From a virus, in the IMG/VR virus record IMGVR_UViG_3300006198_000004: DNA of 57,494 bases. One strand, 5' to 3'. The number at the start of each line of letters is the position of its first letter. The first letter of the stretch is position 1. Below, piece by piece: positions 12,413-57,494 of the stretch. The translations under genes and the position numbers were made by a program. The notes under the pieces are model-generated. The model worked only from the letters and a program-made list of their open reading frames with translations, was not told where the DNA came from and did no database searches.

Positions 12413-12564
12413 TATAATTCTTATAGTGTTATGTGTTCCGTAAGCACAAATTTTTGTATCTTTGCGGCATTACAAAACTGATTGTGTCGCAAAGTTAGAC
12501 ATTCTTTGCGATATATCGCTAAGTATCGCAAATAAAAATTGCAATATTAACAATTATTAACAGC
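12413..12564. promoter_or_regulatory. Immunity switch region
   Basis: - -7 boxes: TATCTTTG (12457-12464, plus strand) and TAACTTTG (12490-12497, minus strand).
- 12-bp palindrome GCGATATATCGC (12508-12519), plus TATCGCAAA (12524-12532).
- 17-bp site TGTGTTC-CGT-AAGCACA (12432-12448). Confidence 0.6.
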
Positions 12565-13050
12565 ATGCCAATCAAGATAGACCTTAACGGCCTCCGAAAA
12601 TCTTTAGGTTTGAAGCAGGCCGAATTTGCCGAAAAGATAGGCATTAAACAAGCCTATCTATCTGAGTTGGAGACAGGTAAAAAGCCTATTCCGACCAATA
12701 TATACAACTCTCTCGTGGATGTGTTTGGCGAGGAAACTTGCGATACGTTTGCAATATCGCAAGAGGAAGCCATAAGCGGTCAACATTTCCACGGCCCGAT
12801 AACGGGGGATAACCCACAATTCGCCGGGCATGATTTCAATAACAACCCGCCATGCAATTTTGGCATCGAGGTTGAAAGGGTAATCGCGGCCATGACTGCA
12901 CAAGCAGACCTCACAAAAGAAGCTCACGAGATAACCAGACGCGCACAAGCCCAAGTTGACCGAGCGCAAGCGCAGGTTGACGTGGCACAACAACAAATGA
13001 ATCGCCTATTGGCTATAATTGAACAGAAACTAAATATTGTACCAGTATGA
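12565..13050 (+). CDS. XRE-family HTH repressor (CI-like) without an S24 peptidase domain
   Basis: The N-terminal HTH is LRKSLGLKQAEFAEKIGIKQAYLSELETGKK. The C-terminus is a Q/A-rich coiled coil (AQAQVDRAQAQVDVAQQQ), and no Ser-Lys autocleavage motif is visible. Confidence 0.75.
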   Translation: MPIKIDLNGLRKSLGLKQAEFAEKIGIKQAYLSELETGKKPIPTNIYNSLVDVFGEETCDTFAISQEEAISGQHFHGPITGDNPQFAGHDFNNNPPCNFGIEVERVIAAMTAQADLTKEAHEITRRAQAQVDRAQAQVDVAQQQMNRLLAIIEQKLNIVPV

Positions 13051-13355: not shown

Positions 13356-13552
13356 ACGAATACTACCGAATGGTGATTGAGCTTTTCAAGGAGAGCCTCA
13401 CCAGCGTAAACCGGGTAAATCCCGATGAAAGCCTCCGGGTGCTGATAGAGATAGAAAAAGCGATAACAACTGCAAAAATCACCGGACAGCCCCTTGATGA
13501 GCTATACCAGCTCAAAGCGGATGTTGAGTTGATAAGAGCTTTGAATGAATGA
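13352..13552 (+). CDS. Hypothetical small protein
   Basis: Its start and stop overlap its neighbours in the repressor operon. Confidence 0.45.
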   Translation: MNEYYRMVIELFKESLTSVNRVNPDESLRVLIEIEKAITTAKITGQPLDELYQLKADVELIRALNE

Positions 13553-13803
13553 ACACTCCGATAAGCAAGCAAATCATGGAGCGTTTCTATTGCGCTCTTG
13601 ACGCGATAATAGCCATGAAGCGTATTCGCGGAGTAAACACATATTGTCGGCTATATGAGATAGACCGCCGCAACCTTATCGCCAATCGAAAGGATTTAGA
13701 TAGGGGATGGTTTCAAGTTTCGTGGCTCCAGCCGATGATAACCGACTACGGAGTAAACGCCAAATGGCTCTTGACCGGCACCGGCAAGATGTTTGATGAA
13801 TAA
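13549..13803 (+). CDS. CI-repressor-type HTH domain protein
   Basis: The C-terminal signature VNAKWLLTGTGKMF matches the WLLTGEG motif of the phage CI repressor HTH domain. Confidence 0.55.
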   Translation: MNTPISKQIMERFYCALDAIIAMKRIRGVNTYCRLYEIDRRNLIANRKDLDRGWFQVSWLQPMITDYGVNAKWLLTGTGKMFDE

Positions 13804-14331: not shown

Positions 14332-15606
14332 CTATTTTTTAGGCTCGTCAACACTTGGTAAATCCAATGCCAGAAAATCAAGCACGGCGCGGTTGGCCGC
14401 ATCTATTTTATCCCAGCTCTTGCGAATGTAAATGTCGGTTACGCGCATATTCTCGTCAACATGGTTTAGGGCAGTATGCACCGTGTATTTATCAACCCCA
14501 GCGTCATTGTTGGCTATCGTAGCCCAACTATGCCGGGCCGCGTAAAACTCCAAATCATCAACGCCGATAATCTTACCTATGCGTTTCAATCCTTTGTTGA
14601 GCGCAGCGCAAAATGTATCGGTGGATGAATAGAGCCGATAGAAATTGAACACCCTTTGCCCCGTGGTGTCGCGGTACTTATCCACAAGAGCCTGCGCCTC
14701 CGGCTCAATCCTTATGGAGATTTCCGCTTTGTCGGCACGGCGGTTGCGTGTCTTTTGGCGTTGGTAGGTTATGCGGCCGTCCGCGATGTCGGTTGCGGCG
14801 AATAGGTCGGCGGCGTTCATGCCTACAAGAAAGAAACTCAGAAGAAACACGTCCTTTGCAAAATTGAACCGATTCACTCCGGGTTGTAGTATGGTCGTAT
14901 ATGGAACTTGCGCAAAAGCCCGCATCTGCTCGACTGACAAAGCGCGTTTGCGCGATAGCGAGGGCTTTGGTATCTCTACCTTGTTGAACGGAGAGAAAGG
15001 TATGCGGATAATTCCGGCTTCCTCATCGTTAAATTCTTTCTTAGCCCGGTTATACATTGCCCGGAGTTGCGCAAGATACAGGCTTTGGGCGCGGTCTCCT
15101 TTCTTGCAGTCCTTACGCGGTGGCTGCTTGGCTATCCATGCTATCCAGTCATTGAGGAATTGCACCGTGATTTCCTTAATGCTGACAACCTCACGCTCGG
15201 CAAATCGTTTCAGACTGTTTATTGCCACCTTGTAGGCTTTGGCGGTCCCGCCTCGTCCGTCTTTCTCCAGCTTGGCGATGAAAGCCTCGGTGTAGGCTAC
15301 TATATCCAAGTCAAAGGGTTTTTCTCTATCTTTTGCCAGCAACTCCACGACCTGCTCCACGGTCATATCGTCCAGACCCTCGCCCACGCTGTTGCATATA
15401 GCGCGATAGCGGCGCAATGTGTCCTCTACCATGTCGATGTACTTTTGGTTTTTGAGCTTGAGGGCGCGTGTCAAATCCTCTTTACCTACATACCACGGAG
15501 TAGAGAGATACTTTTTGCGCTGCTTGTGAGTAACGCGGATTTTTATGTTATAGGTGCCGTCGGCTCTCTTTTGATGAGCATACACCTCTGCTTTGAAAGT
15601 TGCCAT
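14332..15606 (-). CDS. int: Tyrosine recombinase (phage integrase, Bacteroidota type)
   Basis: The N-terminal arm-binding-like segment is MATFKAEVYAHQKRADGTYNIKIRVTH. The C-terminal catalytic region is ARHSWATIA...ALNH...TDIYI (Tyr). Confidence 0.9.
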   Translation of the reverse strand: MATFKAEVYAHQKRADGTYNIKIRVTHKQRKKYLSTPWYVGKEDLTRALKLKNQKYIDMVEDTLRRYRAICNSVGEGLDDMTVEQVVELLAKDREKPFDLDIVAYTEAFIAKLEKDGRGGTAKAYKVAINSLKRFAEREVVSIKEITVQFLNDWIAWIAKQPPRKDCKKGDRAQSLYLAQLRAMYNRAKKEFNDEEAGIIRIPFSPFNKVEIPKPSLSRKRALSVEQMRAFAQVPYTTILQPGVNRFNFAKDVFLLSFFLVGMNAADLFAATDIADGRITYQRQKTRNRRADKAEISIRIEPEAQALVDKYRDTTGQRVFNFYRLYSSTDTFCAALNKGLKRIGKIIGVDDLEFYAARHSWATIANNDAGVDKYTVHTALNHVDENMRVTDIYIRKSWDKIDAANRAVLDFLALDLPSVDEPKK

Positions 15607-15712: not shown

Positions 15713-15784
15713 TGTAGCCCTGCGGGGAATCGAACCCCGATTTAAGGTTTAGGAAACCCTCGTTCTATCCGTTGAACTACAAGG
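15713..15784 (-). tRNA. tRNA-Arg(CCT)
   Basis: I folded the cloverleaf by hand:
- acceptor AGCCTTG/CAGGGCT;
- D arm GTTC-AACGGATA-GAAC;
- anticodon arm AGGGT-TTCCTAA-ACCTT;
- T arm CGGGG-TTCGATT-CCCCG;
- discriminator A, with no encoded CCA. Confidence 0.85.
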
Positions 15785-15937
15785 CTTTATGTAGTCTAAT
15801 CAATGTGTCGGCTCTAAAACATTCACTCGGTAAACAAAATTTGCTCTCAAATTTTGCGTTCAACCCGGAATAGATGTTTAGGAAACTCCTATTTTAACTT
15901 TGATTATCAACCAGATACGAGGCTAATTCGTTATTTC

Positions 15938-21880: not shown

Positions 21881-21923
21881 AATTAACTGGGTTAATCTAC
21901 TGCAAAGTTAATAATAAATGCGT

Positions 21924-22154
21924 TCATAGAACACACTTTAAGGCATAAATTATAGCCACTTGGAGCATTTGCCCCACAATCCCGCCTAAAATCGTAGCTA
22001 ATATGTCGAGCCAATCCCATACGCCACCGTGCGCTTTATCCTTAAATTCCATGCCGGCGGCAAGTCCACCGACAAAGAGGATAGTGAGGAACAATGCGCA
22101 GGGGATAGCGTAGAGAAAGTGCTTGAGGCGGTTGCTTTCCGTAATCCAGCTCAT
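21924..22154 (-). CDS. Small membrane protein (two TM helices)
   Basis: There are two hydrophobic helices (FLYAIPCALFLTILFVGGLAAG; ILATILGGIVGQMLQVAIIYAL). Confidence 0.45.
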   Translation of the reverse strand: MSWITESNRLKHFLYAIPCALFLTILFVGGLAAGMEFKDKAHGGVWDWLDILATILGGIVGQMLQVAIIYALKCVL

Positions 22155-39902: not shown

Positions 39903-40185
39903 ATCGGTTGTTGTTATGCCCCGGAAAAGGGGGTGTTAATAATTGGCTTTTCAGTTCTTAGACACAAAGATAGCTAATTTTTACGATATGTGTTTATAAA
40001 ACACAGAAAAATTTTACCGGGTAAATCTCTGAATTTTCAGCGACTTAAATTTACTGGGTAAATTTTTCCGAAAAATAATTGCCAAAATATTTGGTATATT
40101 CAATAAAACACATTAACTTTGCGGTGTGTTTGAGAAACACAGAAGCTCAAACCAACAAAGCAACACCGATAAAAACTACAAGAAA
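39903..40185. promoter_or_regulatory. Divergent control region (late head-tail operon to the left, accessory block to the right)
   Basis: - Minus-strand -7 box TATCTTTG (39965-39972).
- Plus-strand promoter: TTTG (40090-40093) and TAACTTTG (40114-40121).
- 17-bp palindromes at 39989-40005 and 40125-40141.
- Two TTTACYGGGTAAA palindromes (40013-40025 and 40050-40062). Confidence 0.65.
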
Positions 40186-40395
40186 ATGGCAAAGACAAAA
40201 AGACAGGCTCTCCAAGAACGCCTCAATACCTATGGAAAGAGTGTTAACGCAACGCTCACAATCGGCAAAAACGAGTTAGGCTATTTCATTAGCTACAACG
40301 ATAATCCGATAGCTCTTACATCTGGTCGCTCTTTCAAAGAGCTTGCTGCTTACGTTGACGGTCTCCGCGATATGCTCTTAATCTCCAAACACTAA
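40186..40395 (+). CDS. Hypothetical small protein
   Basis: It is the first ORF after the plus-strand promoter. The start was taken at the ATG at 40186 (MAKTKRQ). Confidence 0.5.
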   Translation: MAKTKRQALQERLNTYGKSVNATLTIGKNELGYFISYNDNPIALTSGRSFKELAAYVDGLRDMLLISKH

Positions 40396-40407
40396 TCTCT
40401 ACAAGAA

Positions 40408-40608
40408 ATGGCAACACCAAATAAATTCAACAAAGGCGATAAGGTAACAGTAACACGCCGCAATGGTGCTAAGGTAATAGGCACAATCTCCGGGTGGGAT
40501 TACAACGTATGCACCTTTGAGGTAGAGTATGATATTGACTACCTCAAAGACGGTAAAAATTTTACCATGATATGTGTTCCACAAACAGCTATAACCCTTA
40601 ACGCATAA
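40408..40608 (+). CDS. Hypothetical small protein
   Basis: It belongs to a tightly packed plus-strand ORF series. Confidence 0.45.
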   Translation: MATPNKFNKGDKVTVTRRNGAKVIGTISGWDYNVCTFEVEYDIDYLKDGKNFTMICVPQTAITLNA

Positions 40609-40619
40609 CCCACGCAGGA

Positions 40620-40874
40620 ATGGAAACCAACAATAAATTCAACAATGCAATCAATGAAATTCGCACTCGCATTGCGGATAAGTTCGATGCAAGCATTTCA
40701 AGTGATTACTATTCGACTAAATATGCCGACATACGCATACGCTTGAATAAGACAACCGACATGGTAGCCTTTCGATACGAAATTGCTAAGATAGCAAAAG
40801 AACACGGCCTAAAATCGGCAGTTAACGGCAATGGGCTTTATGTAGATATATTGCTCTGCGATTCCGACAAATAA
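40620..40874 (+). CDS. Hypothetical small protein
   Basis: It belongs to a tightly packed plus-strand ORF series. Confidence 0.45.
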   Translation: METNNKFNNAINEIRTRIADKFDASISSDYYSTKYADIRIRLNKTTDMVAFRYEIAKIAKEHGLKSAVNGNGLYVDILLCDSDK

Positions 40875-40905
40875 CATCAACAGACAACGCAACACCAACA
40901 AGAAT

Positions 40906-41265
40906 ATGGAAACAAAAAAACTCAAATTCACTCTCAAAATCCCGCGCTGGACTATGGCCGAGGATTTAGGCTACACGCCTATCACTACGTTCTGGCAAGA
41001 CTTTTCTATTGCCGACAAATTCGGTCCCGCCGCAATCCGCGACACTTTCAAACGTGCCTTTGCGGAATGGAAAGGCAACTACAAGTATCTCACGGAGCTT
41101 GTAATGGTACTCAACCACAAAATAGCCTATCACTACAACCCAGCAAAAGGCGCACCCAACGTGTTAGCCAATCTCTACAATGAATTGTGGGAAGAGGCCG
41201 ACAGCTACGCTAACACTCATCTTGAGGGTGAGGAATATGCTTACTTTTACTCAATCACCGACTAA
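40906..41265 (+). CDS. Hypothetical protein
   Basis: It belongs to a tightly packed plus-strand ORF series. Confidence 0.5.
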   Translation: METKKLKFTLKIPRWTMAEDLGYTPITTFWQDFSIADKFGPAAIRDTFKRAFAEWKGNYKYLTELVMVLNHKIAYHYNPAKGAPNVLANLYNELWEEADSYANTHLEGEEYAYFYSITD

Positions 41266-41277
41266 ACACCTACGACA

Positions 41278-41481
41278 ATGGGAATACTCAAAGACGCAAT
41301 CCGTGAGGTGCTGACACAATCAGCCAAAGAGCAAGGCCGCGATATTCGCTTTATTGATAGCCCTACAAGGGTTATCGAAACAAGCGAACAAGCCAAATAC
41401 AATGACATACGCCGCGTTGAACGTGGCTATGTGCAAGGCGTTCACAAAGCAAGAAAGGAGGCTAACAATGGCAACCAGTAA
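41278..41481 (+). CDS. Hypothetical small protein
   Basis: It belongs to a tightly packed plus-strand ORF series. Confidence 0.45.
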   Translation: MGILKDAIREVLTQSAKEQGRDIRFIDSPTRVIETSEQAKYNDIRRVERGYVQGVHKARKEANNGNQ

Positions 41482-41620
41482 ATCCCTATGCGCCCAATGC
41501 ACCTATGGCGCACGTTACGGCTCATCCTACTTTTGTAGTTATCGGTGCCGACCATTCAATAACAATAAATCCAAATGCGCCAACTATCACGCCAAAAACG
41601 ATACTCAAAAAAATGGATAA
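41468..41620 (+). CDS. Cys-rich small protein
   Basis: The start was taken at MATSKSLCAQC (41468). It carries CxxC...C...C spacing. Confidence 0.35.
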   Translation: MATSKSLCAQCTYGARYGSSYFCSYRCRPFNNNKSKCANYHAKNDTQKNG

Positions 41621-42125
41621 TATCATAAAATTTAGAGCTAAACGCCTTACCAATAGAAAGAGAGGCGCATGGGCTTACGGGCATTTATACCCGATGAACA
41701 CAACAAAAGGACTGCAACTCTGTATCTGCGACCATAAACAGGGCTTTGCCGGTCCCGTGGACGATAATACAAAGGGGCAATTCATTGGGTTATACGACCA
41801 GCATGATAAAGAGATATTTACAGGTGATTATATCGCCATTGATTACAAATATGATGGCTTAGGCTCACATGGATGCGTTGAACCAGACCAAGATTGCTTC
41901 TGCGAGGGAGTAGTTGTTTATATGAGAGAATTTGCCTGCTATGGCTTACATCTTTATAAGGCAGAACAGCCAATTAAAGAATCCTTAAAAGAAACGCCAT
42001 ATCTAACCCTACCGTTAATAGAGTTTGATTTGGTAAGTGATAGCATTGAGATATTAGGAAATATTTACGATAACCCGGAATTACTCACCAATGGAAAAAA
42101 TAGTAAAGCAAAGAGAAATCAGTAG
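41613..42125 (+). CDS. YopX-family protein
   Basis: MDNIIKFRAKR...GLYDQHDKEIFTGDYI matches the YopX pattern (IKFRAW...GKEIYEGDIV). Confidence 0.65.
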   Translation: MDNIIKFRAKRLTNRKRGAWAYGHLYPMNTTKGLQLCICDHKQGFAGPVDDNTKGQFIGLYDQHDKEIFTGDYIAIDYKYDGLGSHGCVEPDQDCFCEGVVVYMREFACYGLHLYKAEQPIKESLKETPYLTLPLIEFDLVSDSIEILGNIYDNPELLTNGKNSKAKRNQ

Positions 42126-42132
42126 CATTAAG

Positions 42133-42396
42133 ATGAGCGTAAATCCGCCACAATGCGTTATAGATGCCGACTATTGCGTTATCGCCAATGGAAAGGTGAT
42201 GCAATATGTAGGGATAGGATGGGTTGAATTAAGAGCCGCAACCCCAAGCGACTACGATACAATCCCCCAGATACTAACACCGCATTGCTCTCAATGCGAA
42301 TACTACGACAATATAGGCGATACCATGTATTGCGCCAAATATCAAAAGCGGATAACGGCCCGCAAGCGTCCGTGTAAACACTATAAAGAAAGATGA
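42133..42396 (+). CDS. Cys-rich small protein
   Basis: It carries CSQC...C...C motifs. The start was taken at the ATG at 42133, after the YopX stop. Confidence 0.4.
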   Translation: MSVNPPQCVIDADYCVIANGKVMQYVGIGWVELRAATPSDYDTIPQILTPHCSQCEYYDNIGDTMYCAKYQKRITARKRPCKHYKER

Positions 42397-42638
42397 AAAA
42401 ACAACTCATTTCAGCCGTGGGCGTTATCTACGTTCACAATCTCCAAGGCGACACCGTAGAACCTAACGTATTGGGCGAGGTGTTCTATATGCGCACAACG
42501 CGCATACTCAAACGCCGAGTGCGTAAGGTTATCTATTCTCTTGCCGTGCCTCTTGACGGGCATAGCATAGACTCTACAAAACAAGAAATGCGTGAGTTAC
42601 TTGATGATATAGTAAGACGATATTACGACCGTTGCTAA
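42393..42638 (+). CDS. Hypothetical small protein
   Basis: Its start overlaps the preceding stop. Confidence 0.45.
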   Translation: MKKQLISAVGVIYVHNLQGDTVEPNVLGEVFYMRTTRILKRRVRKVIYSLAVPLDGHSIDSTKQEMRELLDDIVRRYYDRC

Positions 42639-42639
42639 T

Positions 42640-42927
42640 ATGCCAATCAAGCCCGAAAATCGCGCACGATACCCTAAGAATTGGCCGCAAATACGCAAGG
42701 CAATACTTGAACGTGCGCACAACTGTTGCGAGTTTTGCGGAGTTGAAAACTACTCTATGCGGCTCAACCCCAATACAGGCAAAGAGGTTAAAATCATCCT
42801 CACGATAGCGCATTTAGACCATACCCCCGAAAACTGCGACCCCAGCAACCTACGGGCATTGTGTCAGAAATGCCACAACTCTTATGATGCGGAACACCGC
42901 AAGGAAACAAGAAAACGAAATAAATAA
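42640..42927 (+). CDS. HNH endonuclease
   Basis: It has the motifs CEFCG...IAHLDH...NL.ALCQKCHN. Confidence 0.8.
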   Translation: MPIKPENRARYPKNWPQIRKAILERAHNCCEFCGVENYSMRLNPNTGKEVKIILTIAHLDHTPENCDPSNLRALCQKCHNSYDAEHRKETRKRNK

Positions 42928-42933
42928 CAAGCT

Positions 42934-43158
42934 ATGAAAGTCTATATCAATAAACGTAGTGGCGGTTACGGCTACACAGGTGGCTTAATCGTTGTGGCCG
43001 CAAATAGCCCTCAAGAGGCACATGGTGTTATGTGTGATAGTGAACGTGGCGATGATTATATTGACTATTACGAGGCCGCAGGCTGGCAACTGTTAGCTAA
43101 TGTAGTGGCAAACGTGGAACAACCTACAATATTAGCGGAACATGGCTACACAGAATGA
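42934..43158 (+). CDS. Hypothetical small protein
   Basis: It belongs to a tightly packed ORF series. Confidence 0.4.
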   Translation: MKVYINKRSGGYGYTGGLIVVAANSPQEAHGVMCDSERGDDYIDYYEAAGWQLLANVVANVEQPTILAEHGYTE

Positions 43159-43351
43159 AACTGTTGCGCTCGTGGAAGGCTTTGCCAAAGCCAACCCGGA
43201 AACGATAGAGCGACTTAACGCCGCAGCTCGTGAAATGCTCAATCCATGCCGGCAAGAATTGACTGCAAAGGAGCTTGAGGCGGCGCAAGTGGCGTTCTGT
43301 TTGGGCGGCGTGTGGGTAATCATTAACCAAGTAAACATAAACCCTAAATGA
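43142..43351 (+). CDS. Hypothetical small protein
   Basis: It belongs to a tightly packed ORF series. Confidence 0.4.
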   Translation: MATQNETVALVEGFAKANPETIERLNAAAREMLNPCRQELTAKELEAAQVAFCLGGVWVIINQVNINPK

Positions 43352-43352
43352 T

Positions 43353-43601
43353 ATGGAAATAAAAATCAAATGGAGATATGCCAGCGGCTCTATCGACACA
43401 AAAGATATGGAGCTTATATGTATTCCGGCAAGAGGTCGGCGTTCTTTTGGTCCCGATGAGCTGGATGCGGAGATGGCAATCAAAGACGGCTGGAACATGG
43501 TAATCGCCCACATACACACTGGCGATGTGGAAAGCTCCAATGCCTTGTGTCAAGAGATATGCCGCCGGTTTAATGAATTTCCAAAAGAACAGAAACTATG
43601 A
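43353..43601 (+). CDS. Hypothetical small protein
   Basis: It belongs to a tightly packed ORF series. Confidence 0.4.
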   Translation: MEIKIKWRYASGSIDTKDMELICIPARGRRSFGPDELDAEMAIKDGWNMVIAHIHTGDVESSNALCQEICRRFNEFPKEQKL

Positions 43602-43810
43602 GCTATTGCCCGGATTGTGGATGCAAGATGTATAAAGGCATTTGCACCAACTGCCACGAGGATTTGATTATCTTCGATGAGTGTTTGGAATACGATATTC
43701 CAATGAGTGATGAATTTCTGGAGCGCGTTGATGAGTGCCGCAAGCGACAAAAGGAGTATGCAAAGCGTCCCGATGTCAAACGTGCCATAAACTCCAATAA
43801 CAACGAATGA
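43598..43810 (+). CDS. Zinc-ribbon small protein
   Basis: It has the motif CPDCGCKMYKGICTNCH. Confidence 0.45.
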   Translation: MSYCPDCGCKMYKGICTNCHEDLIIFDECLEYDIPMSDEFLERVDECRKRQKEYAKRPDVKRAINSNNNE

Positions 43811-43813
43811 ATT

Positions 43814-44053
43814 ATGAAAATGATAGTAGAGCCTAACGGCGCGTATTCAGAACAATATTATGGGCTTACCAAAAGAGAGGTGAAATTGATATTGCCGTAT
43901 ATACGCAATGCGGCCCGACACGCTGAAAACATGGTAGAACACTATCAAGATATTCTTGAAAGTGGAGAGGCTACCGACCGCCAAACAACGGCCTTAGCTC
44001 AATGGGAAGATAAAATGGATATTTTTAACTCCATGATAGCTTTTATGGAATGA
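43814..44053 (+). CDS. Hypothetical small protein
   Basis: It belongs to a tightly packed ORF series. Confidence 0.4.
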   Translation: MKMIVEPNGAYSEQYYGLTKREVKLILPYIRNAARHAENMVEHYQDILESGEATDRQTTALAQWEDKMDIFNSMIAFME

Positions 44054-44283
44054 GCGATAAGTGCCATTACATAAACGTCCGCGATGTTGGGCGCGTCCTT
44101 ATTCCGGGTTGTATGGCGGTGGCTGTAAGTGGCGATATATCGCAATGCACTTGCAACGCCCCGCTATCATACCCGGAGCAAATAGACCAACTCCAGCGGG
44201 AGAATAAAAGGCTTAGAGAGGAAAACAAGCGGCTCAAAGCCTTGTTAAGCTCACAAGAAAACGAGGCTAACAAAAGAAAATAG
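44050..44283 (+). CDS. Hypothetical small protein with C-terminal coiled coil
   Basis: It has a leucine-zipper-like segment (QIDQLQRENKRLREENKRLKALL). Confidence 0.4.
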   Translation: MSDKCHYINVRDVGRVLIPGCMAVAVSGDISQCTCNAPLSYPEQIDQLQRENKRLREENKRLKALLSSQENEANKRK

Positions 44284-44292
44284 CCCCAAAAG

Positions 44293-44338
44293 TTTGTTAT
44301 ATTAAATATATTCCATAACTTTGCGTTTATCAAACACA
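44293..44338 (+). promoter_or_regulatory. Internal promoter with operator
   Basis: The promoter has TTTG (44293-44296), a 19-nt spacer and TAACTTTG (44316-44323). The 17-bp site TGCGTTT-ATC-AAACACA (44322-44338) overlaps the expected transcription start. Confidence 0.65.
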
Positions 44339-44342
44339 AAAT

Positions 44343-44627
44343 ATGACTACGAAACGCCAAAGGAAAGTAATCCACGTTGAGCTTAAAGAGCCTTACAACG
44401 GCCGGCGCAACTACTATTTCGGTAGCGCAAAAGCCATATACAACACACTCCCCACGGAGATAGTCGGTATTAGCTTAGGCTCGCTCTGGAATTGGTTTAG
44501 CAAGTCCAACACCTACACCGGCGCACACGCCACAATCCGAAAGAGAGATTTAATCACAACACCAACCAATAGAGGAAAACGAAATGAAAACCGAGCTGAC
44601 AATAGAACAGAGCCAACGGCTCATTGA
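44343..44627 (+). CDS. Hypothetical basic protein
   Basis: It is the first ORF after the internal promoter. Confidence 0.45.
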   Translation: MTTKRQRKVIHVELKEPYNGRRNYYFGSAKAIYNTLPTEIVGISLGSLWNWFSKSNTYTGAHATIRKRDLITTPTNRGKRNENRADNRTEPTAH

Positions 44628-44937
44628 AAGAGGGGTAAATCCTATATTAGCAAGTGGATTGGCGAAAGACCCTGTATCACAATGGGAATTACCCGTGTTT
44701 ACTTTAATAGACATTGCTAAATTATTGCCAGAAAGAAAAGCGTTTGCAAATGCCGAGGCTTATGCGAACATACATTTTGAGCTTGCCGAGCATAAATGGG
44801 TGGCTCAATATCTTGATTATGACAAAGATGATGATGTGATTGCCGAGGAATCTGCTCCGGAGCTTATAGACGCTTTATATTCTCTTTGCTTGTGGGGCAT
44901 TAAGAGAGGGTATATAGAAATTCTAAAAAAGAATTGA
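44584..44937 (+). CDS. Hypothetical protein
   Basis: The ORF overlaps the preceding one. Confidence 0.45.
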   Translation: MKTELTIEQSQRLIERGVNPILASGLAKDPVSQWELPVFTLIDIAKLLPERKAFANAEAYANIHFELAEHKWVAQYLDYDKDDDVIAEESAPELIDALYSLCLWGIKRGYIEILKKN

Positions 44938-44938
44938 T

Positions 44939-44992
44939 ATGTTAGGAGCAATCATAGGAGATATAGTTGGCTCACGCTTAATATTTTCGTAA
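44939..44992 (+). pseudogene. Truncated remnant of an ADP-ribosylglycohydrolase-family gene (17 codons)
   Basis: It encodes MLGAIIGDIVGSR, the characteristic N-terminus of ADP-ribosylglycohydrolase-family proteins. This is followed by LIFS* and then the lipoprotein-gene promoter box. Confidence 0.5.
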
Positions 44993-45032
44993 TTTTGCAT
45001 TTCAATTCAAACAACTCAATAACTACAAGAAG

Positions 45033-45620
45033 ATGAAAAAACTATTATTTGGATTTTCCATGCTGCTTGCATTGACCCTTTCGGCTTGCGGCGGCGATGA
45101 TGAGCCGGACACACCGACTGCAAAACTGGACGTGAAAGAGCTTGTAGGCTATGTAGGCAAACAAACATCCTACGTCAAAGAGAATTTCAAGAGTGGCACA
45201 TTTGAAAACGAGGGCGGCTCACTTGGCAAGACCACGCTAAGATATGGCTTGCCAACAAAAGATGCCAATTATTCCGTTACGTTCAAAAGCAACACAAGCG
45301 GAGTAATCACCGACATTGTAGTATATGGCAACTACGGCTCGTCTTACGACAAAGGGATTGAGGCTTACAAGGCCGACATGGACAAAATCAACTCTACCAT
45401 TACACACGTTTCCTATATCGCCAGATACAACAACGGTGTAACAATGGATTTCAAAGACCGTGCGGAGTTCTGGAGCTATGTTGCCGAAAACGGCGTTTCC
45501 AAATTCATTCAAGAAACATGGTGGATTGAAAACACCGCAACAATCAAGTTTGATGTGGAGGCTACATACAACCGTAGTGGCAACTCCGTGGAGATTGACA
45601 TTGAAAAGAAAGAGTGGTGA
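45033..45620 (+). CDS. Lipoprotein (moron-like)
   Basis: It has a signal peptide with a lipobox (MKKLLFGFSMLLALTLSAC-GGDD) and its own -7 box, TAATTTTG, at 44989-44996. Confidence 0.8.
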   Translation: MKKLLFGFSMLLALTLSACGGDDEPDTPTAKLDVKELVGYVGKQTSYVKENFKSGTFENEGGSLGKTTLRYGLPTKDANYSVTFKSNTSGVITDIVVYGNYGSSYDKGIEAYKADMDKINSTITHVSYIARYNNGVTMDFKDRAEFWSYVAENGVSKFIQETWWIENTATIKFDVEATYNRSGNSVEIDIEKKEW

Positions 45621-45672
45621 TGTGTTTATATAACACATATTGCTCACTTTCAGCAAAATAGTTGATTTTTTA

Positions 45673-45703
45673 TTTGTAAATCTCGGTTTTTGAGGCTACC
45701 TTT
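45673..45703 (+). promoter_or_regulatory. Promoter of the structured leader / antirepressor operon
   Basis: It has TTTG (45673-45676), a 19-nt spacer and TACCTTTG (45696-45703). Confidence 0.6.
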
Positions 45704-45708
45704 GCAAT

Positions 45709-45849
45709 GCGTTACATTTCAAAGGGCAAGTGAGTAAAACCGCTTGCAAATCTGTGAGTGGTATTTTTATACCCTTACTTGACATAACTAACGGTATTGT
45801 ACCCCCGTGTGGTGCGTTAATGCGCCCACTGCCCTTTGAGGTGTAACGC
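45709..45849 (+). ncRNA. Candidate structured RNA / 5' leader (closing helix plus internal hairpins)
   Basis: - The 5' arm 45709-45732 pairs with 45827-45849 over about 22 bp.
- Two of these pairs are U-G and work only on the plus-strand transcript.
- Internal hairpins lie at 45754-45778 and 45809-45829.
- The RNA would start at the predicted transcription start. Confidence 0.5.
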
Positions 45850-45904
45850 AACGGGAAAGGCAATGCCGTTTTCTATTGCCTGTTATCTTTCAAAATGCGT
45901 TATA

Positions 45905-46168
45905 ATGAAAGAGAAACAAAGAGGTATGGCTACCTCAAACAGCCAAACGGAGTTTGACCTACTGCTTACTCTCGCCAAAAAGGTTGCTCGGCTTCGTGAT
46001 GAGTTTGAAAAACTCTCAATGAGCAAGGTGTGTGACGGAATATTCTCGGTTAATTTCTTTGAGGCTCAAAACCGCCTTAACGAAATTCTGCTCACTGACC
46101 TTACGGCTCCGATGCACTCGTGCGTGATAGAACAGTTTGTAAACCACGCAAGCGAGGAGGGCGTATGA
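45905..46168 (+). CDS. Hypothetical protein upstream of the antirepressor
   Basis: The ORF follows the leader. The start is at ATG 45905 or 45926. Confidence 0.45.
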   Translation: MKEKQRGMATSNSQTEFDLLLTLAKKVARLRDEFEKLSMSKVCDGIFSVNFFEAQNRLNEILLTDLTAPMHSCVIEQFVNHASEEGV

Positions 46169-47028
46169 GCAAGCAAGTGTTCAGCTACAACGGCTCTCCC
46201 GTCACTTTCCAACTCGGAGAGGCTACAATGGTTAACGCTACCCAAATGGCGAAGCCTTTCGGCAAACGACCTGTGGATTGGTTGCGACTACCTTCAACAA
46301 AAGAGTTTATCAAAACTCTATCCACTGTGAGAAATTCACACAGTGAAAATCTCGTGATAACGGTTAACGGTGGTACGACTGACAACGGAAAAGGCACATG
46401 GTTACACGAAGATGTTGCGCTGGAGTTCGCACGTTGGCTATCGCCCCAGTTCGCTATATGGTGCAACGACCGTATCAAGGAGCTTATGCGCCACGGAATC
46501 ACCGCCACGCCGCAAGCGATAGATGCACTGCTCAACGACCCGGACACCATGATAAGGACGCTCCAAGCATTAAAGGCAGAGCGTGAACGGGCCGACAATG
46601 AGAAACGCCGTGCCGATACTCTGGAGATACAGCGTGATACATTCCACTCGGAAAACCGCCGCTTGCAAAAGCTACACACCGGCTATCTCCGTCAGCTTGA
46701 GGCGCAAGCTCCAAAAGTTGAGTATGCCGATAACGTGCTTTCCAGCGATAGCACCTACACCACTACCCAGATAGCAAAGGAATTGGGAATGTCGGCGCAG
46801 GCACTCAACAAAATACTCCACGGCCTCGGCATACAGTTCCGGCAAAGTGGTCAATGGCTGCTCTATGCCAAGTATCAGGCAAAGGGGTATATGAAAACAC
46901 GGACGCATACCTACAATCGTTCCAATGGACGCACAAGCACCATGCTTGTATCAGTCTGGACCGAGGCGGGGCGAATGTTCCTACACTCACTGCTCAAAAA
47001 GTACGAGTTAATCAAAAGTGGCGTATAA
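46165..47028 (+). CDS. KilA-N / Ant-type antirepressor
   Basis: The N-terminal KilA-N-like region is FSYNGSPVTF...ATQMAKPFGKRPVDWLRL...GTWLHEDVALEFARWLSPQFAIWCNDRI. The C-terminal KilAC/ANT-like region is YTTTQIAKELGMSAQALNKILHGLGIQ. Confidence 0.8.
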   Translation: MSKQVFSYNGSPVTFQLGEATMVNATQMAKPFGKRPVDWLRLPSTKEFIKTLSTVRNSHSENLVITVNGGTTDNGKGTWLHEDVALEFARWLSPQFAIWCNDRIKELMRHGITATPQAIDALLNDPDTMIRTLQALKAERERADNEKRRADTLEIQRDTFHSENRRLQKLHTGYLRQLEAQAPKVEYADNVLSSDSTYTTTQIAKELGMSAQALNKILHGLGIQFRQSGQWLLYAKYQAKGYMKTRTHTYNRSNGRTSTMLVSVWTEAGRMFLHSLLKKYELIKSGV

Positions 47029-47078: not shown

Positions 47079-47147
47079 AAGCCCCTCCAAGTAAGGCCGT
47101 GGATTGTAGTTCCACGGGTTGCTGCTTGGATGGGCTTATTTCTTTTT
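47079..47147. terminator. Bidirectional terminator between convergent operons
   Basis: The outer stem AAGCCCCTCCAAG/CTTGGATGGGCTT has 12 of 13 pairs, and the inner stem is CCGTGGA/TCCACGG. It is followed by TATTTCTTTTT on the plus strand. Confidence 0.7.
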
Positions 47148-48680
47148 CAGCATTTTCAAGATATTAGGATTGTCCGTAATGCTATGAAGTCTTAACCCTT
47201 GTTCATATATGGCTCTTGTGATTATCCAACAAGTAATCTCGCCTATGATAGTTTCATGTATATAGGCTTTCATTTCGGGGTCATGTATATCATCAACATA
47301 ACCCATATATTGAGATTGTTGATACAGCTTTGGCAACTGCAAAAGAGCCTCGTTTTTGGCTTCAATGTTCGCGAAAGGTTGATTAAGCCACTCCTTGACA
47401 CTTTTCTTTGATATTGTTATAGGGTCATTTATTCCGGGTGCTGATAATGCCTGTGAGCATATAGTGGCATACGCCAGCCGTTGTATCTCCTTTCGCCTCT
47501 TTTTAATTCGTTCCGACAACGGATTCTTTATAACACGGCCTTTCTCTACAAGTTCTTGATTATCCCTTAAAAAGTATGGTAAAGTTCCGGCAGTTGTTGC
47601 TCTATCTATTCTCTCCGCATTATCTTTCGCCCAGACCTTAAACGTTGAGGGCATAGCCGTTACCTCGTTGGCACAATCAACGCCGGCCGGGTCTTTCCCG
47701 TCCAGAATATTATCCAACATTTTATCAAGCTCGGCGGGGCTTGCCAGTACCGGCTCTTGGTAACAACGACAATTAGGGTGCCAGCCACTCCACTTGAATG
47801 TTTTGGGGTATATGCCTTTGAGGTCATCGCAAATATCCGGCTCCGGGTGGTTGTTGCTCAACTTGATTTCAATGCCGATAACGAAAGGCATTTGTTGCCA
47901 ACGCTCATAGTCGGCAGTGCGGTAGGCGATATTTGTTTCAGTTCGCGCCAGCCTTTGAGCGTTCCTATAAGAGCTACGATATACACCACGTCCGGGGTGA
48001 TATTTACGGGGGTCATCATCAACCCATTTGTAGGACCCGCTTTCAGCGTCAAAGATGCGCCTTTTCCACACGCGCCCATATTTGGGTGTGCCGTCCTCGT
48101 TCTCGCCGATTTTGACACGGAAACGCCTATAAAAGCGGTCGGGGTCATTGAGATACTTTTGAATTTGGGTGGCAAGTCTATTAGCCGGAGTTCCCTCGCC
48201 AATAGCCAAATCCAAAGCGTCCTCTAACTCATCCTTGAAAACTCCCGTGTATTTCCATACCTTTTGAGAGAGATTAAGCCCTGCGCCGGTCTTACGCGCA
48301 AAAAACGCTTTCATTGCATCCATGTTGCGTTGAAAGAATCGGGCAAAGTGGTTATCCTCTATTGAGTGTTCGCCAAATATAGCCTTGACAAGTCCATCGT
48401 TATGCTCGTTGGCATTTAGCCACTCTTTTTCTACCCCAGTACGGATTATCTGGTAAACGCGAGAATACATAGAGCGCAATATTGGCGTAACCTCATCGGA
48501 ATAGCCATATTCGGAGAAAGAGAACGGTTTGCCCGCCTCAAGCTCCGTGCCTTTTACCAAGTTAATTATTTCAGTGAGCGCAGACCGATAGACAGCCCCC
48601 ACGTTGGCGGCGTAGCCCTCGGTGCGCTTGAATAACTCGGAATTGAGCTTTTTGTAATCTATGTATTTCCGCTTTGCCAT
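47136..48680 (-). CDS. Head morphogenesis protein (SPP1 gp7 / Mu F family) with C-terminal extension
   Basis: The MuF core is RTETNIAYRTADYERW...NHPEPDICDDLKGIYPKTFKWSGWHPNCRCY, and about 150 further residues follow it. Confidence 0.8.
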   Translation of the reverse strand: MAKRKYIDYKKLNSELFKRTEGYAANVGAVYRSALTEIINLVKGTELEAGKPFSFSEYGYSDEVTPILRSMYSRVYQIIRTGVEKEWLNANEHNDGLVKAIFGEHSIEDNHFARFFQRNMDAMKAFFARKTGAGLNLSQKVWKYTGVFKDELEDALDLAIGEGTPANRLATQIQKYLNDPDRFYRRFRVKIGENEDGTPKYGRVWKRRIFDAESGSYKWVDDDPRKYHPGRGVYRSSYRNAQRLARTETNIAYRTADYERWQQMPFVIGIEIKLSNNHPEPDICDDLKGIYPKTFKWSGWHPNCRCYQEPVLASPAELDKMLDNILDGKDPAGVDCANEVTAMPSTFKVWAKDNAERIDRATTAGTLPYFLRDNQELVEKGRVIKNPLSERIKKRRKEIQRLAYATICSQALSAPGINDPITISKKSVKEWLNQPFANIEAKNEALLQLPKLYQQSQYMGYVDDIHDPEMKAYIHETIIGEITCWIITRAIYEQGLRLHSITDNPNILKMLKKK

Positions 48681-52570: not shown

Positions 52571-53084
52571 TGTTGCCTGTCTTTATTTTCTCCAAAAGAG
52601 CGTTGTATTGCAATAGTTCCTCGGTAGTCAGCACCGACAAATCAACCGGGTTAACTTTCGCGTTGATTTCGCCCTCTATCGTCTGCGTAGCCTTGCCAAA
52701 TACTCGGTCAAAAAGCATTTCGATTGTTGACGTGCGCCCATAGCGCATATCGGTATTGATAGCGGATATTATGCTCAATACCCACATCGGAGTGTTGGGA
52801 TTGGGCTTGTGGGGGTCGGCGGGGTCTTTCAACAGCGGCTCCAGTTCTGCGGGGGAGCTTTCGTAAATGTGTTGAATTACTTTTAAGATTTCCTCTTTGC
52901 TGCTTTGGGGGTCAACTTTTTTTCCCGTGGTCTGCCGTATGTAATTAAGCACGGAGAATTTGCCACGCCCTTTTCGCTTGGGCTGGTTCTCGGACGTAAA
53001 GCGATTGCCTTTCTTATTTCCTTTTTCAAAGAGTGCCATTCGTTGTGATTCCGTTGATTTATTCTTTCCGTGTTTGTTGAACAC
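52557..53084 (-). CDS. Terminase small subunit (by position)
   Basis: It is basic at the N-terminus and lies directly upstream of TerL, overlapping it. An alternative ATG lies at 53039. Confidence 0.5.
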   Translation of the reverse strand: MFNKHGKNKSTESQRMALFEKGNKKGNRFTSENQPKRKGRGKFSVLNYIRQTTGKKVDPQSSKEEILKVIQHIYESSPAELEPLLKDPADPHKPNPNTPMWVLSIISAINTDMRYGRTSTIEMLFDRVFGKATQTIEGEINAKVNPVDLSVLTTEELLQYNALLEKIKTGNNGKE

Positions 53085-53148
53085 ATATTGACTGCAAAGA
53101 AAACCGGGCAGCCGAAACCGCCCGGCTCTTTACTCGGTATTGTGGGAG

Positions 53149-53992: not shown

Positions 53993-55114
53993 TTATTTCT
54001 TTTTTGCGTTGATAAAATCGTGAATATAGAGCAATCCATGTCGGCGGCAAAAGGCTTTAATCTCATCGCCACCGCCATAAACTACAAGATTGGGGAGTTC
54101 AAGCCCGCTTATCTCCTGCGCTACCTGTAAATCGCTCTTGAGGCTTTCAAGCCATCCGTCAAGCCCACGAGTGAAAAAGGCGTTGTAGCCTTTCGGAATA
54201 CCCATTTTGTTGTATTCGATAAACTTGTGGGCTACATTAAGGTCGGCGTAAACTTTGATACCACACTCTTGCAAGTAGCGACAAAGCCACCGCTTTTTGT
54301 AGATAAGGCTTATTCCGTATGCGATTGGCGTTTGGTCGTGGCAGCTACAATTAGGCTCTACCACCGCCTTACAACCGCTTGTGAGCAAATTAATCGGGTC
54401 TTTGAACAAAGCCTCAAAGCGGTAATCATCCACATAGAAATGATAGGTCGCTACATCCTTTCTTAGACGGCTATTCGCGCCCCACGGAGTTAATGGCAAT
54501 TCAACCTTGCCGGCTTGCATTTCAAGCAAGAGATTGGGGATTTCGTAAATATTATCGCTTTCGTATAGCACATCTTTCAGCATGGAGCGATAAAAAGCCT
54601 CTTTATCATCGCCTCCATTCTCTCCGTCATCGTCTGGCTCATTGTCATTGTCGCTATCATCGCCCTCGTCCCCATCATCGGAGTTGTCAAAGGGCGCGAG
54701 GGTTGCAGTCTTGGAGGCCGTCTTTTTCTCTTTCGGAAAATCCAGACCTATAAAGCCAAAATCAACATCACCAAAAGCCGGGTCTGTCTGTAATGCGCCA
54801 AAATCCCACTCTCCATTGTTGATGTTGGAGCGTAGGATAAGGTCGGTGCGTTCATCATCCGACAACTCGGAGTAAAGCACGGTCGGGACCTCTTTTATTT
54901 TGAGCCTTTTTACAGCCTTGAGGCGTTGGTTCCCGTCCAGAACGATAAGGCGGCCGTCCTGTTCCTCTAATGCCATAGGCCGGTGTTCCCAGAATCCGTT
55001 GAGCTTGATTGAATCAACAACACGAGCCAGCCCGTCCTTGTCGATAGTTCGCGGATTGTTTGGCAGAGGGTGCAGGTCGGCAACCTTGCGATATTTCATT
55101 GGCTCACATTTCAT
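53993..55114 (-). CDS. ParB-like nuclease domain fused to a DUF4417-like C-terminal domain
   Basis: It has an N-terminal ParB motif (LHPLPNNPR...VLDGNQRLKAV), an acidic linker and a conserved C-terminal domain (YHFYVDDYRFEALFKDP). Confidence 0.65.
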   Translation of the reverse strand: MKCEPMKYRKVADLHPLPNNPRTIDKDGLARVVDSIKLNGFWEHRPMALEEQDGRLIVLDGNQRLKAVKRLKIKEVPTVLYSELSDDERTDLILRSNINNGEWDFGALQTDPAFGDVDFGFIGLDFPKEKKTASKTATLAPFDNSDDGDEGDDSDNDNEPDDDGENGGDDKEAFYRSMLKDVLYESDNIYEIPNLLLEMQAGKVELPLTPWGANSRLRKDVATYHFYVDDYRFEALFKDPINLLTSGCKAVVEPNCSCHDQTPIAYGISLIYKKRWLCRYLQECGIKVYADLNVAHKFIEYNKMGIPKGYNAFFTRGLDGWLESLKSDLQVAQEISGLELPNLVVYGGGDEIKAFCRRHGLLYIHDFINAKKK

Positions 55115-55595: not shown

Positions 55596-55675
55596 GCGTG
55601 TAATATTAACTTGGTTAATGATGCAAAGATACAAAATAATGCGTTTACAGAACACATTTTAGGTGAGAAAATTTA

Positions 55676-57325: not shown

Positions 57326-57494
57326 TTATCGGTTATCGCCCGTGCCGTGGATAGTACCCCGGAGCTTACGGGCAGCTATTTTTGCGAGATTGAGAGTTGC
57401 CACCTCGGAAAGTGAGGAACCTATTGCCCTTGCAAGATTGGCGGTGTACCAAAGCACATCGCCCAATTCGTAGGCTATTCGGTCCCGTGTGTCC
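57326..57494 (-). CDS. MazG-like pyrophosphohydrolase, C-terminal part (continuation of 1-238 across the junction)
   Basis: My translation gives ...ARAIGSSLSEVATLNLAKIAARKLRGTIHGTGDNR*, with the stop at 57326-57328. Confidence 0.75.
   Translation of the reverse strand, partial: DTRDRIAYELGDVLWYTANLARAIGSSLSEVATLNLAKIAARKLRGTIHGTGDNR
57418..57494. repeat. Terminal overlap, copy 2 (identical to 1-77)
   Basis: It is an exact 77-nt match to the start of the window. Confidence 0.9.

Follow-up and report, generated by a model that had tools for sequence, protein, structure and literature searches.

In the temperate phage phiC31, inverted repeats of ∼17 bp, the CIRs, occur in many intergenic copies and are bound by the c repressor. 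Mycobacteriophage L5 carries dozens of gp71 stoperators, asymmetric 13-mers that are orientation-dependent and lie in short intergenic gaps of both arms. In the IncP plasmid RK2, KorA and KorB, the latter belonging to the ParB family, have two palindromic operators over nearly all transcription units. Lambda shows looping between OL and OR, the CI of TP901-1 has three operators, and in the immI region of P22 the anti-repressor gene ant is controlled by Mnt and Arc. The present analysis concerns a 17-bp palindrome, TGYGTTY-N3-RAACRCA, dispersed over eight sites of the virus record IMGVR_UViG_3300006198_000004, a stretch of 57,494 bases that is referred to throughout as the window. The palindrome set was filed as the dispersed operators of a mobile-element regulator, a kind that is known; what is new is its sequence, the group of hosts and the probable binder. 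On the evidence of sequence comparison, an about even chance is assigned to the eight palindromes being operators of one phage-encoded, dimeric and sequence-specific protein that would be shared across the phage family, would act mainly as a repressor and would be the 84-amino-acid (84-aa) protein encoded in the lysogeny operon.

Similar to the CIRs of phiC31, the palindromes are near-identical intergenic copies in a temperate phage, with one copy at the promoter of the candidate repressor and a single repressor proposed for many units. The host phylum, promoter type, sequence and protein all differ from phiC31; the candidate here is a short protein of 84 aa consisting only of a helix-turn-helix (HTH) domain, it stands beside a separate variable CI, and the operator is kept across phage and host families. 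As with the L5 stoperators, dispersed sites would silence the prophage beyond its main early promoter, and the copy at 45621 would fit a roadblock role (copies are named by their first coordinate). Unlike the asymmetric L5 sites, the sites here are symmetric 7-3-7 palindromes and lie mostly on core promoter elements. RK2 offers a parallel in its two different palindromes, sometimes side by side, as found here for the TGTG palindrome and a second one, T[TA]AC-N3-GT[TA]A; RK2 is however a plasmid, and the ParB-like nuclease of the window is unlinked to the sites. Operators of 17 bp with pseudo-symmetry, read by a proposed HTH dimer, a weak copy with a presumed autoregulatory role and phased distant copies suited to looping are shared with lambda and TP901-1; for the 84-aa protein and the Cro-like one alike, the best structural or sequence match, a weak one, is the N-terminal domain of TP901-1 CI. 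In contrast to these phages, the palindrome is not located at the early lytic promoter and does not co-vary with the immunity repressor. Resembling P22 immI, a second repressor system would be placed in the late region over an accessory module with Ant; the difference is that Ant occurs in only three related loci while the palindrome is universal, and the sites reach all structural operons. No ribbon-helix-helix protein was identified in the window.

Regulation in temperate phages of gut Bacteroidales is almost unstudied. The palindrome gives a family-wide map of cis-elements (eight or nine promoters per genome), the first concrete testable one for this prophage family, together with three conserved small candidate proteins. 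An isolated inducible model exists in phage Versailles of Bacteroides caecimuris I48, a member of the OMM12 defined mouse consortium.

The palindrome and its position at promoters

The original prediction had listed seven 17-mers of one 7-3-7 geometry, and all seven were found at the positions given for them. The list was incomplete, as an eighth copy is present at 21919-21935; the 84-aa protein and the second palindrome at late promoters had also been overlooked. The strict pattern occurred six times in the window against 0.00 expected from 100 dinucleotide shuffles, and the consensus with up to two mismatches seven times against 0.25 expected, with a maximum of two in any shuffle. Scored with a symmetrised position weight matrix, the eight sites ranged from 19.4 to 24.8, and the next best hit reached 11.7. 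All eight are intergenic, intergenic DNA amounting to 6.6% of the window by the gene list used; two apparent overlaps with open reading frames vanish with the ATG starts conserved in relatives (53039 for TerS, 55595 for the gene at 55104). Equally good matches inside coding regions had been named beforehand as the finding that would speak against a set of operators; the genome-wide motif scan gave no comparably good matches in coding DNA. An extra half-site, AAACACA at 40106-40112, is also real, a matching or one-mismatch copy being present in 10 of 14 aligned relatives. A further half-site reported at 14206 fared worse: it is kept only in the closer relatives of the L130 and L146 sets (L numbers denote related loci), whose 84-aa proteins are 92% and 86% identical, and it is probably meaningless, a product of chance or recent ancestry.

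The window has promoters of the Bacteroidetes type, marked by a "-7" box, TAnnTTTG, and a "-33" element, TTTG. Fourteen intergenic TAnnTTTG boxes were counted, and seven of them adjoin a palindrome. No palindrome accompanies the early promoter, where separate repeats are found, the promoters of the integrase, tRNA and lipoprotein genes, or the boxes at 15895, 47055 and 57377. The late promoters have perfect -7 boxes throughout, and the accessory-module promoter is a full-consensus -33/-7 pair whose expected transcription start is covered by the 40125 copy. The plan palindrome-N8-TAnnTTTG is common to the promoters of the lysogeny operon (12432), the tail unit (21919) and the packaging opener (55640), the last being the first promoter after the Holliday-junction resolvase gene and standing at the head of the packaging region. 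From its position, the copy at 45621 would be a roadblock or a distal operator. The hairpin upstream of TerS was not called by a simple terminator scan. In 306 unique related contexts the downstream classes were rigid, the distance from box start to site centre being 19 nt in 59 contexts and 14 nt in 24, and the upstream class was loose, with gaps of N6, N7, N8 and N9 in 14, 19, 12 and 15 contexts, respectively. The positions of all features are listed in Table 1.

Table 1. Coordinates of palindromes, promoter elements and genes in the window, and of the variant operators of a related contig
Feature	Coordinates	Strand	Context
TGTGTTCCGTAAGCACA, weakened copy	12432-12448		8 nt upstream of the -7 box of the lysogeny promoter; in the 5' leader of the Cro-like gene
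TGCGTTCATAGAACACA	21919-21935		8 nt upstream of minus-strand -7 box 21903-21910, ahead of the tail genes
TGTGTTTATAAAACACA, perfect	39989-40005		16 nt upstream of minus-strand -7 box 39965-39972 (head-gene promoter)
TGTGTTTGAGAAACACA, perfect	40125-40141		3 nt downstream of plus-strand -7 box 40114-40121 (accessory-module promoter)
Half-site AAACACA	40106-40112		between -33 TTTG and -7 box of the accessory-module promoter
TGCGTTTATCAAACACA	44322-44338		shares 2 nt with -7 box 44316-44323; 4 nt separate its end from the ATG of the 94-aa gene
TGTGTTTATATAACACA	45621-45637		starts at the first base after the lipoprotein-gene stop; 59 nt upstream of -7 box 45697-45704, ahead of the anti-repressor gene
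CGTGTTTGTTGAACACA	53069-53085		29 nt ahead of the ATG of TerS (53039, minus strand); follows a GC-rich hairpin and a T-rich tract
TGCGTTTACAGAACACA	55640-55656		8 nt upstream of minus-strand -7 box 55624-55631
Second palindrome TTTACYGGGTAAA, two copies	40013-40025, 40050-40062		between the two perfect TGTG palindromes
Second palindrome	21883-21895, 55606-55618		each just downstream of the -7 box of an N8 late promoter
TATCGCAAA-type repeats, three or four	12485-12532		flank the -7 box of the early promoter, some as inverted pairs
-7 box, lysogeny promoter	12457-12464	+	face to face with the early-promoter box
-7 box, early promoter	12490-12497	-	face to face with the lysogeny-promoter box
Variant operators	L341:11261, 13867, 19666, 19815		contig IMGVR_UViG_3300045988_010769; also in L071-L075
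MerR/excisionase-like 94-aa protein	11662-11946		conserved family-wide, median 58.5% identity
Cro-like 74-aa HTH protein	12188-12412	-	gene 1 of the early operon; weak HTH_23 match
XRE-family CI-like repressor	12565-13050	+	Pfam HTH_3, 1.4e-9; divergent from the Cro-like gene
84-aa HTH-like protein	13549-13803	+	fourth translationally coupled gene of the lysogeny operon
Integrase	14332-15606		adjoins tRNA-Arg
tRNA-Arg(CCT), complete	15714-15786		next to the integrase gene
Head and tail genes	39902 down to 16165		
Accessory module	40186-47028		oppositely oriented; ∼20 small genes, the last encoding the anti-repressor
94-aa protein, phrog_10608	44343-44627	+	own promoter overlapped by palindrome 44322
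Anti-repressor, KilA-N and ANT domains	46120-47028		in only three related loci
ParB-like nuclease	53993-55114		no link to palindromes

The sites are very likely protein operators, judged from their sequence pattern. Across 213 unique contexts the central triplet took 47 different values. Half-site positions 6 and 7, which were not selected for, read T in 78% and T or C, respectively; positions 1-5 were the selection criterion, so that their conservation in this table is partly circular, and independent support for the cores comes from an alignment of 14 regions. Positions 7 and 11, partners in any hairpin, vary independently (T-A 79, T-G 47, C-A 26, C-G 7). The 7-3-7 layout is two-fold symmetric, within the 14-18 bp usual for operators of CI/Cro-type repressors, and places the half-site centres 10 bp apart, about one helical turn. 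Constant arms, a free centre and half-site centres 10 bp apart together suggest the operator of a dimeric protein. It is highly improbable that the palindromes work instead as RNA or DNA hairpins (terminators, processing sites or antiterminator targets). Each copy can fold a stem of 6-10 bp and several lie in 5' leaders or between genes, but what is conserved is the sequence of the stem and not the pairing, as compensatory changes are absent and the loops are unconstrained. The predicted RNA hairpins are weak (-2.9 to -9.5 kcal/mol), AU-rich and without a following U-tract, and three or four copies are placed upstream of the promoter that they accompany. The tRNA was the sole Rfam match in the window, with none for the palindromes; thus neither a stable stem, compensatory changes, nor a U-tract or model match of the kind seen in intrinsic terminators and structured RNAs was found.

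Known operators of host regulators were also compared. A CRP/FNR site is TGTGA-N6-TCACA, that is, TGTG-N8-CACA over 16 bp; the palindrome is TGTG-N9-CACA over 17 bp, with TTY and not A at positions 5-7, and was rejected as a site of this type. The SOS boxes described for Bacteroidetes are GGA-N5-TCC and CTAA-N5-TTAG (PMC8565304), and the palindrome matches neither of them, so that a box for a non-canonical LexA was likewise rejected.

Conservation in related phages

The searches for relatives were anchored on a 209-aa head-region protein, a 183-aa protein and the XRE, Cro-like and 84-aa proteins, and gave more than 200 related loci from IMG/VR and 34 from GTDB genomes; the 79 loci referred to below are those recovered with the 84-aa protein as query. 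Among the hosts of the 34 genome loci are Bacteroides, Prevotella, Muribaculaceae, Alistipes, Parabacteroides and Dysgonomonas, and the palindrome-bearing phages are taken to form a large family of Bacteroidales temperate siphophages. The closest records are a contig of Barnesiella sp. WM24 (57,418 bp), which carries an 84-aa gene 96% identical to that of the window, genomes of Muribaculaceae and Prevotella, and the isolated Bacteroides phage Versailles. A megablast of 36000-57494 against GenBank phages gave no match, and Versailles surfaced by protein search.

In 80 related loci (the first 1.23 Mb) the strict pattern was matched 135 times, about three matches being expected by our estimate from base composition. 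Almost every locus has both copies of the divergent head/accessory region, including loci in which the identity of the flanking protein drops to 43-60%, and in the alignment of 14 diverse regions (A5) the TGTGT...AC.C cores and the -7 boxes are invariant while the surrounding DNA is variable. The copy ahead of TerS is kept in L081-L089 and Versailles; in L088 and L089 it sits 3 nt after a perfect -7 box. The 55640 copy is kept in L081-L087, with a Versailles counterpart at 17837, and the copy ahead of the 183-aa gene is conserved in relatives. At the 94-aa gene the same arrangement recurs in many loci and at 28490 of Versailles; in the L010 group the site has been lost from this gene's own promoter. 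The Versailles counterpart of 21919, at 52024, also has a gap of 8 nt. Between the Cro-like and repressor genes an imperfect copy is present in relatives, always degenerate, though the repressors differ. The distant clade L238-L240 keeps the Cro-like helix and has no palindrome beside the Cro-like gene; both the 84-aa and the Cro-like proteins have diverged there, and the sampled DNA stops short of the late region.

In Versailles, a phage of B. caecimuris, seven of the eight sites of the window have a counterpart in the same place, 45621 being the exception, and one more lies inside the early operon. The total is nine sites when a three-mismatch copy at 4630 is counted, and all nine lie between real genes; many near-identical intergenic copies, the mark of dispersed operators, are thus present in both genomes (8 of 8 in the window, 9 of 9 in Versailles). 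Full-text literature searches with the half-site strings and for palindromes at Bacteroides prophage promoters returned unrelated papers only. The paper describing Versailles reports no regulatory sites and no such motif (PMC10197239), and that on BV01 calls induction "enigmatic" and describes no operator (PMC8354205). Within the limits of the literature searched, the palindrome was treated as undescribed for these phages.

In L114-L127 and L156-L193 the degenerate half-site between the Cro-like and repressor genes was observed often to read TATGTTTG, which is a perfect TAnnTTTG -7 box directed towards the Cro-like gene, so that the operator coincides with a possible second promoter.

Candidate binding proteins and mode of action

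The 84-aa protein is the leading candidate for the binder; the assignment is a prediction from sequence, with a probability somewhat short of even. In the 79 loci its median identity is 81%, compared with 61% and 66% for the Cro-like protein and the integrase, respectively. Of the 34 genome loci, 30 encode a homolog with 74-96% identity; the value is 51-69% in the other four, which are distant metagenome-assembled genomes of Bacteroidales. The 84-aa protein is conserved about as well as the major capsid protein and better than any other early protein. The AlphaFold2 (AF2) model is a five-helix bundle with a predicted local distance difference test (pLDDT) score of 84, and a Foldseek search of the PDB gave seven hits, all of the CI/XRE-type HTH, including TP901-1 CI, C.Esp1396I and a regulator of phage 186; these were weak (E 3-10, template modelling (TM) score 0.4-0.58). 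One database source labels a homolog "CI repressor". The HTH assignment is only moderately supported. A profile search of a large protein collection recovered only unannotated members of the family, and no function for the 84-aa, 94-aa, 69-aa and 183-aa proteins could be read from Pfam, PHROGs or NCBIfam. Loci with the 84-aa gene and no Cro-like gene (L187, L194) are truncated remnants without sites. The copy on the lysogeny promoter (12432) would serve the 84-aa protein in autoregulation; the Cro-like gene also has a copy at its side, and the 94-aa gene one on its promoter.

One clade with altered operators (contigs 3300045988_010769, _007267, _056299 and 3300029570_000324) served as a natural experiment. 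Its four covered sites read TGYGTAT-N3-ATACRCA, with A for T at position 6 in seven of eight half-sites. Each of its candidate proteins was set against 66-73 unique homologs of phages with canonical operators, or 16 sequences in the case of the 94-aa protein; columns were taken as conserved at 97% or more among the canonical homologs for three proteins and when invariant among the 16 for the fourth. Three of 26 conserved columns were changed in the 84-aa protein (G53S, W54I, Q56D), one of 17 in the Cro-like protein (L56I), one of 17 in the MerR-like protein (E86D) and two of 16 in the 94-aa protein (L48T, R66K). The replacement of GWFQ (53-56) by SIFD in the 84-aa protein occurs only in this clade, is the sole non-conservative change there to a near-invariant motif and directly follows the predicted recognition helix, within which lies a further clade change, K48E; GWFQ survives in homologs only 51% identical. 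In 434-type repressors the loop after the recognition helix reaches inner operator positions, and the operator change at position 6 hence matches the changes seen in the 84-aa protein.

The repressor encoded by the XRE-family gene had been proposed as a binder, and in favour of its binding all sites is that it is a clear HTH_3 protein adjoining one copy. In relatives whose neighbouring proteins are 97-100% identical, however, the repressor is 62-70% identical or is alike only at residues 65-161, in the latter case with a different N-terminal domain, and in 43 of the 79 loci it is not detectably related. The repeats of the early promoter (P_cro) also differ among relatives, while the palindrome, TGTGTTC-NGT-AAGCACA at this place, is unchanged throughout. 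In the window separate TATCGCAAA-type repeats flank the early promoter and are probably the true CI operators; palindrome 12432 lies 40-50 nt downstream of the early start. Neither mark of an immunity operator, co-variation with CI or overlap with the early lytic promoter, was found for the palindrome; the differences in repressor and repeats look like ordinary heteroimmune variation of which it is not part. Since the HTH and the P_cro operators vary between close relatives and the palindrome does not, the XRE repressor was set aside as the binder, its chance being minimal. The broader proposal that one regulator coordinates several units is supported by the intergenic restriction, the fixed geometry towards the -7 box and the family-wide half-sites; it is the XRE repressor as its agent that does not hold. 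The Cro-like protein, the other binder suggested originally, is disfavoured but remains the strongest of the rivals, at a low probability. Made after induction from the early promoter, it would shut the lysogeny operon through 12432 (the task of a Cro) and the accessory module, and by position could be a repressor or an activator at late promoters. It is found in 73 of the 79 loci (median identity 61%), is HTH-like with an invariant recognition helix, TVRCW-G-QKPDAL, and finds its best PDB sequence match in the N-terminal domain of TP901-1 CI (E 0.04, weak). The palindrome always adjoins the start codon of its gene and covers the -33 of the lysogeny promoter facing it, mirroring the CI operators at the early promoter, and P2 Cox and 186 Apl are Cro analogues with separate operators. 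Against this, its recognition helix is the same in the altered-operator clade, where L56I is the only conserved-column change, and T50V is also found in Versailles, whose sites are canonical. Of all copies, the one through which a Cro would act is the weakest, while the perfect ones are at promoters whose firing is required late in the lytic cycle; 12432, 21919 and 55640 share the N8 geometry and yet would need opposite outcomes; and L238-L240 have the helix with no palindrome beside the gene.

A dual-function lytic regulator, such as the 94-aa protein or another conserved small protein, is less probable again. Bound at about -30 to -40 it would activate late promoters, and bound at +1 it would repress early or accessory ones, in the manner of the dual or late regulators Phi29 p4, the Mu C/Mor family and the P2 Ogr family. 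Late activators are known for an invariant family-wide pair of operator and binder (TGT-N12-ACA in P2/186/P4), a copy is present at all four structural-gene units, and the N16-N18 class places the site near -37 to -40. The 94-aa gene is present in all 56 loci with enough upstream DNA, with a copy on its own promoter, and the protein is among those changed in the altered-operator clade. But late promoters with perfect TAnnTTTG boxes should need no activator, the N6-N9 class lies in the spacer/-33 region with loose spacing, the TerS copy is at +1 in L088 and L089, and the geometry of the lysogeny promoter equals that of two late promoters. The 94-aa fold moreover has no DNA-binding relative in the PDB, and its gene's promoter has lost the site in the L010 group. 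The AF2 model of this protein (pLDDT 81) has two long strands, three helices, two strands and a basic tail; it gave no PDB fold match and, in a viral library, one uncharacterised homolog, and it may represent a new small DNA- or RNA-binding fold. Even less probability is given to a host transcription factor conserved across Bacteroidales, which would couple the phage promoters to host physiology. The constancy of the motif over the host range given above, without the diversification expected of immunity elements, would fit such a factor; yet the CRP/FNR spacing and the known SOS boxes differ, and the host flanks of the 34 genome loci, a small sample, give only three-mismatch copies. One phage clade has altered seven of eight half-sites consistently, which is easier if the binder travels with the phage, and three conserved small phage proteins are available, of which the 84-aa and Cro-like proteins are HTH-like and the 94-aa protein is without a DNA-binding relative.

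Judged from their placement, the sites are probably repressive, with a confidence clearly above even. They lie over the start (40125), the -7 box (44322) or the -33/spacer region (12432, 21919, 55640). The loose upstream gap (N6-N9) favours steric blocking over a fixed contact between activator and polymerase, and at least one late promoter is repressively arranged in view of the TerS copy 3 nt after the -7 box in L088 and L089. The perfect -7 boxes of all late promoters likewise favour repression. Perfect copies are found on the lytic and accessory promoters, and the lysogeny-promoter copy is degenerate. Strong sites at the targets with a weak autoregulatory site form the pattern of a repressor made in the lysogen, whereas a Cro should bind the repressor promoter best.

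Several points weigh against the 84-aa protein as a repressor at these sites. The covariation test rests on a single clade, which has also lost the second palindrome and shifted one promoter gap from N8 to N18, and the changes of the 84-aa protein could on that account belong to the other motif; the 94-aa protein, too, changes two conserved residues there. In this clade (L071) the divergent-region spacing is 148-149 bp, a departure from phase of about 0.2 turn. Neither Pfam nor NCBIfam has a match for the 84-aa protein, hhalign showed no significant link between it and the Cro-like profile or the N-terminus of the XRE repressor, its profile found nothing among PDB sequences, and its fold matches are weak (E 3-10, TM ∼0.5). 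For the N16-N18 class the centre falls near -37 to -40, a position that activators use as well. A repressor of the immunity type should diversify, an invariant pair being more typical of late activators or host factors.

With the 84-aa protein as binder, the proposed repressor would occlude the start, -7 or -33 of sigma-A-type promoters. Its targets would be the accessory module (40125, 44322), packaging (55640, 53069), head (39989) and tail (21919) units; the copy at 45621 would block read-through into the anti-repressor gene, and the degenerate copy at 12432 would weakly autoregulate the lysogeny operon. The two perfect divergent-region copies are 136 bp apart, centre to centre, in the window, 125 or 134-137 bp in relatives and 115 bp in Versailles. 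Spacings of 115, 125 and 134-137 bp equal about 11, 12 and 13 helical turns, and this rough helical phasing suggests that the two copies would probably cooperate through DNA looping. The lysogen would then have two locks, a variable CI guarding the early promoter and a conserved, co-transcribed second repressor guarding all other promoters. Such two-tier silencing, in which a hypervariable CI would set immunity specificity and the 84-aa HTH protein would lock every other sigma-A promoter through 17-bp operators and looping, is put forward tentatively, with a probability well below even. If it is true, a resident prophage would silence the late genes of superinfecting relatives in trans, a family-wide cross-immunity that would follow from the operator and protein being identical across the family and its host families. 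The operator and the 84-aa protein would also constitute an orthogonal, portable repressor/operator switch for Bacteroidales genetics and Bacteroides engineering. If the 84-aa protein binds the sites, its removal should de-repress the late genes. An S24 peptidase domain was not detected in the XRE repressor of the window, and induction may for this reason depend on an anti-repressor.

The second palindrome and the genomic context

The second palindrome, T[TA]AC-N3-GT[TA]A (TTTACCGGGTAAA / TTAACCAAGTTAA), has ten copies in the window, four of which are intergenic. It is kept in most relatives and in Versailles and is absent in the L071 clade, that of the altered operators, where direct repeats of TTTTCTAT take its place. 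It is probably the site of a different regulator, and it may give the late promoters their timing.

The window ends in an exact copy of its first 77 bp (1-77 = 57418-57494); this direct terminal repeat marks it as a circular assembly, with a length of about 57,417 bp. Its genes are those of a temperate siphophage. The early operon, which spans the window ends, encodes an SbcC-like protein, RecT, a hydrolase and a Holliday-junction resolvase, and the packaging and head genes include TerS, TerL, portal and a Bxa-type ADP-ribosyltransferase/minor-head protein. A Mu-like transposable phage, an idea raised by the gene sizes, was ruled out by the RecT, SbcC-like and hydrolase genes of the early region. 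Versailles was observed to carry the same tRNA-Arg(CCT) at its prophage end, on which ground the attachment site is probably in or beside tRNA-Arg.

In Versailles, a gene at L241:4947-5453 that follows the Cro-like gene is annotated as "RNA polymerase sigma factor", and its sequence has only a LuxR/sigma-region-4-like C-terminal HTH. This LuxR-type protein was rejected as a universal regulator, being absent from the window and present in only 24 of the 79 loci. The predicted starts of the lysogeny and early promoters are only ∼12 bp apart, so that their transcripts must cross; such an arrangement would suit transcriptional interference of the kind described in phages 186 and P2.

A homolog of the minor head protein (47136-48680) matches the PHROG annotated as Bxa ADP-ribosyltransferase with an E-value of 2.5e-226; Bxa is a Bacteroides prophage fitness factor in the literature. 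The lipoprotein-like gene at 45033-45620 encodes a signal peptide with Cys and has its own consensus promoter (box 44990-44997), which is operator-free. It sits within a module that is otherwise operator-controlled, a palindrome beginning right after its stop codon, and from its sequence it looks like a lysogenic-conversion gene.

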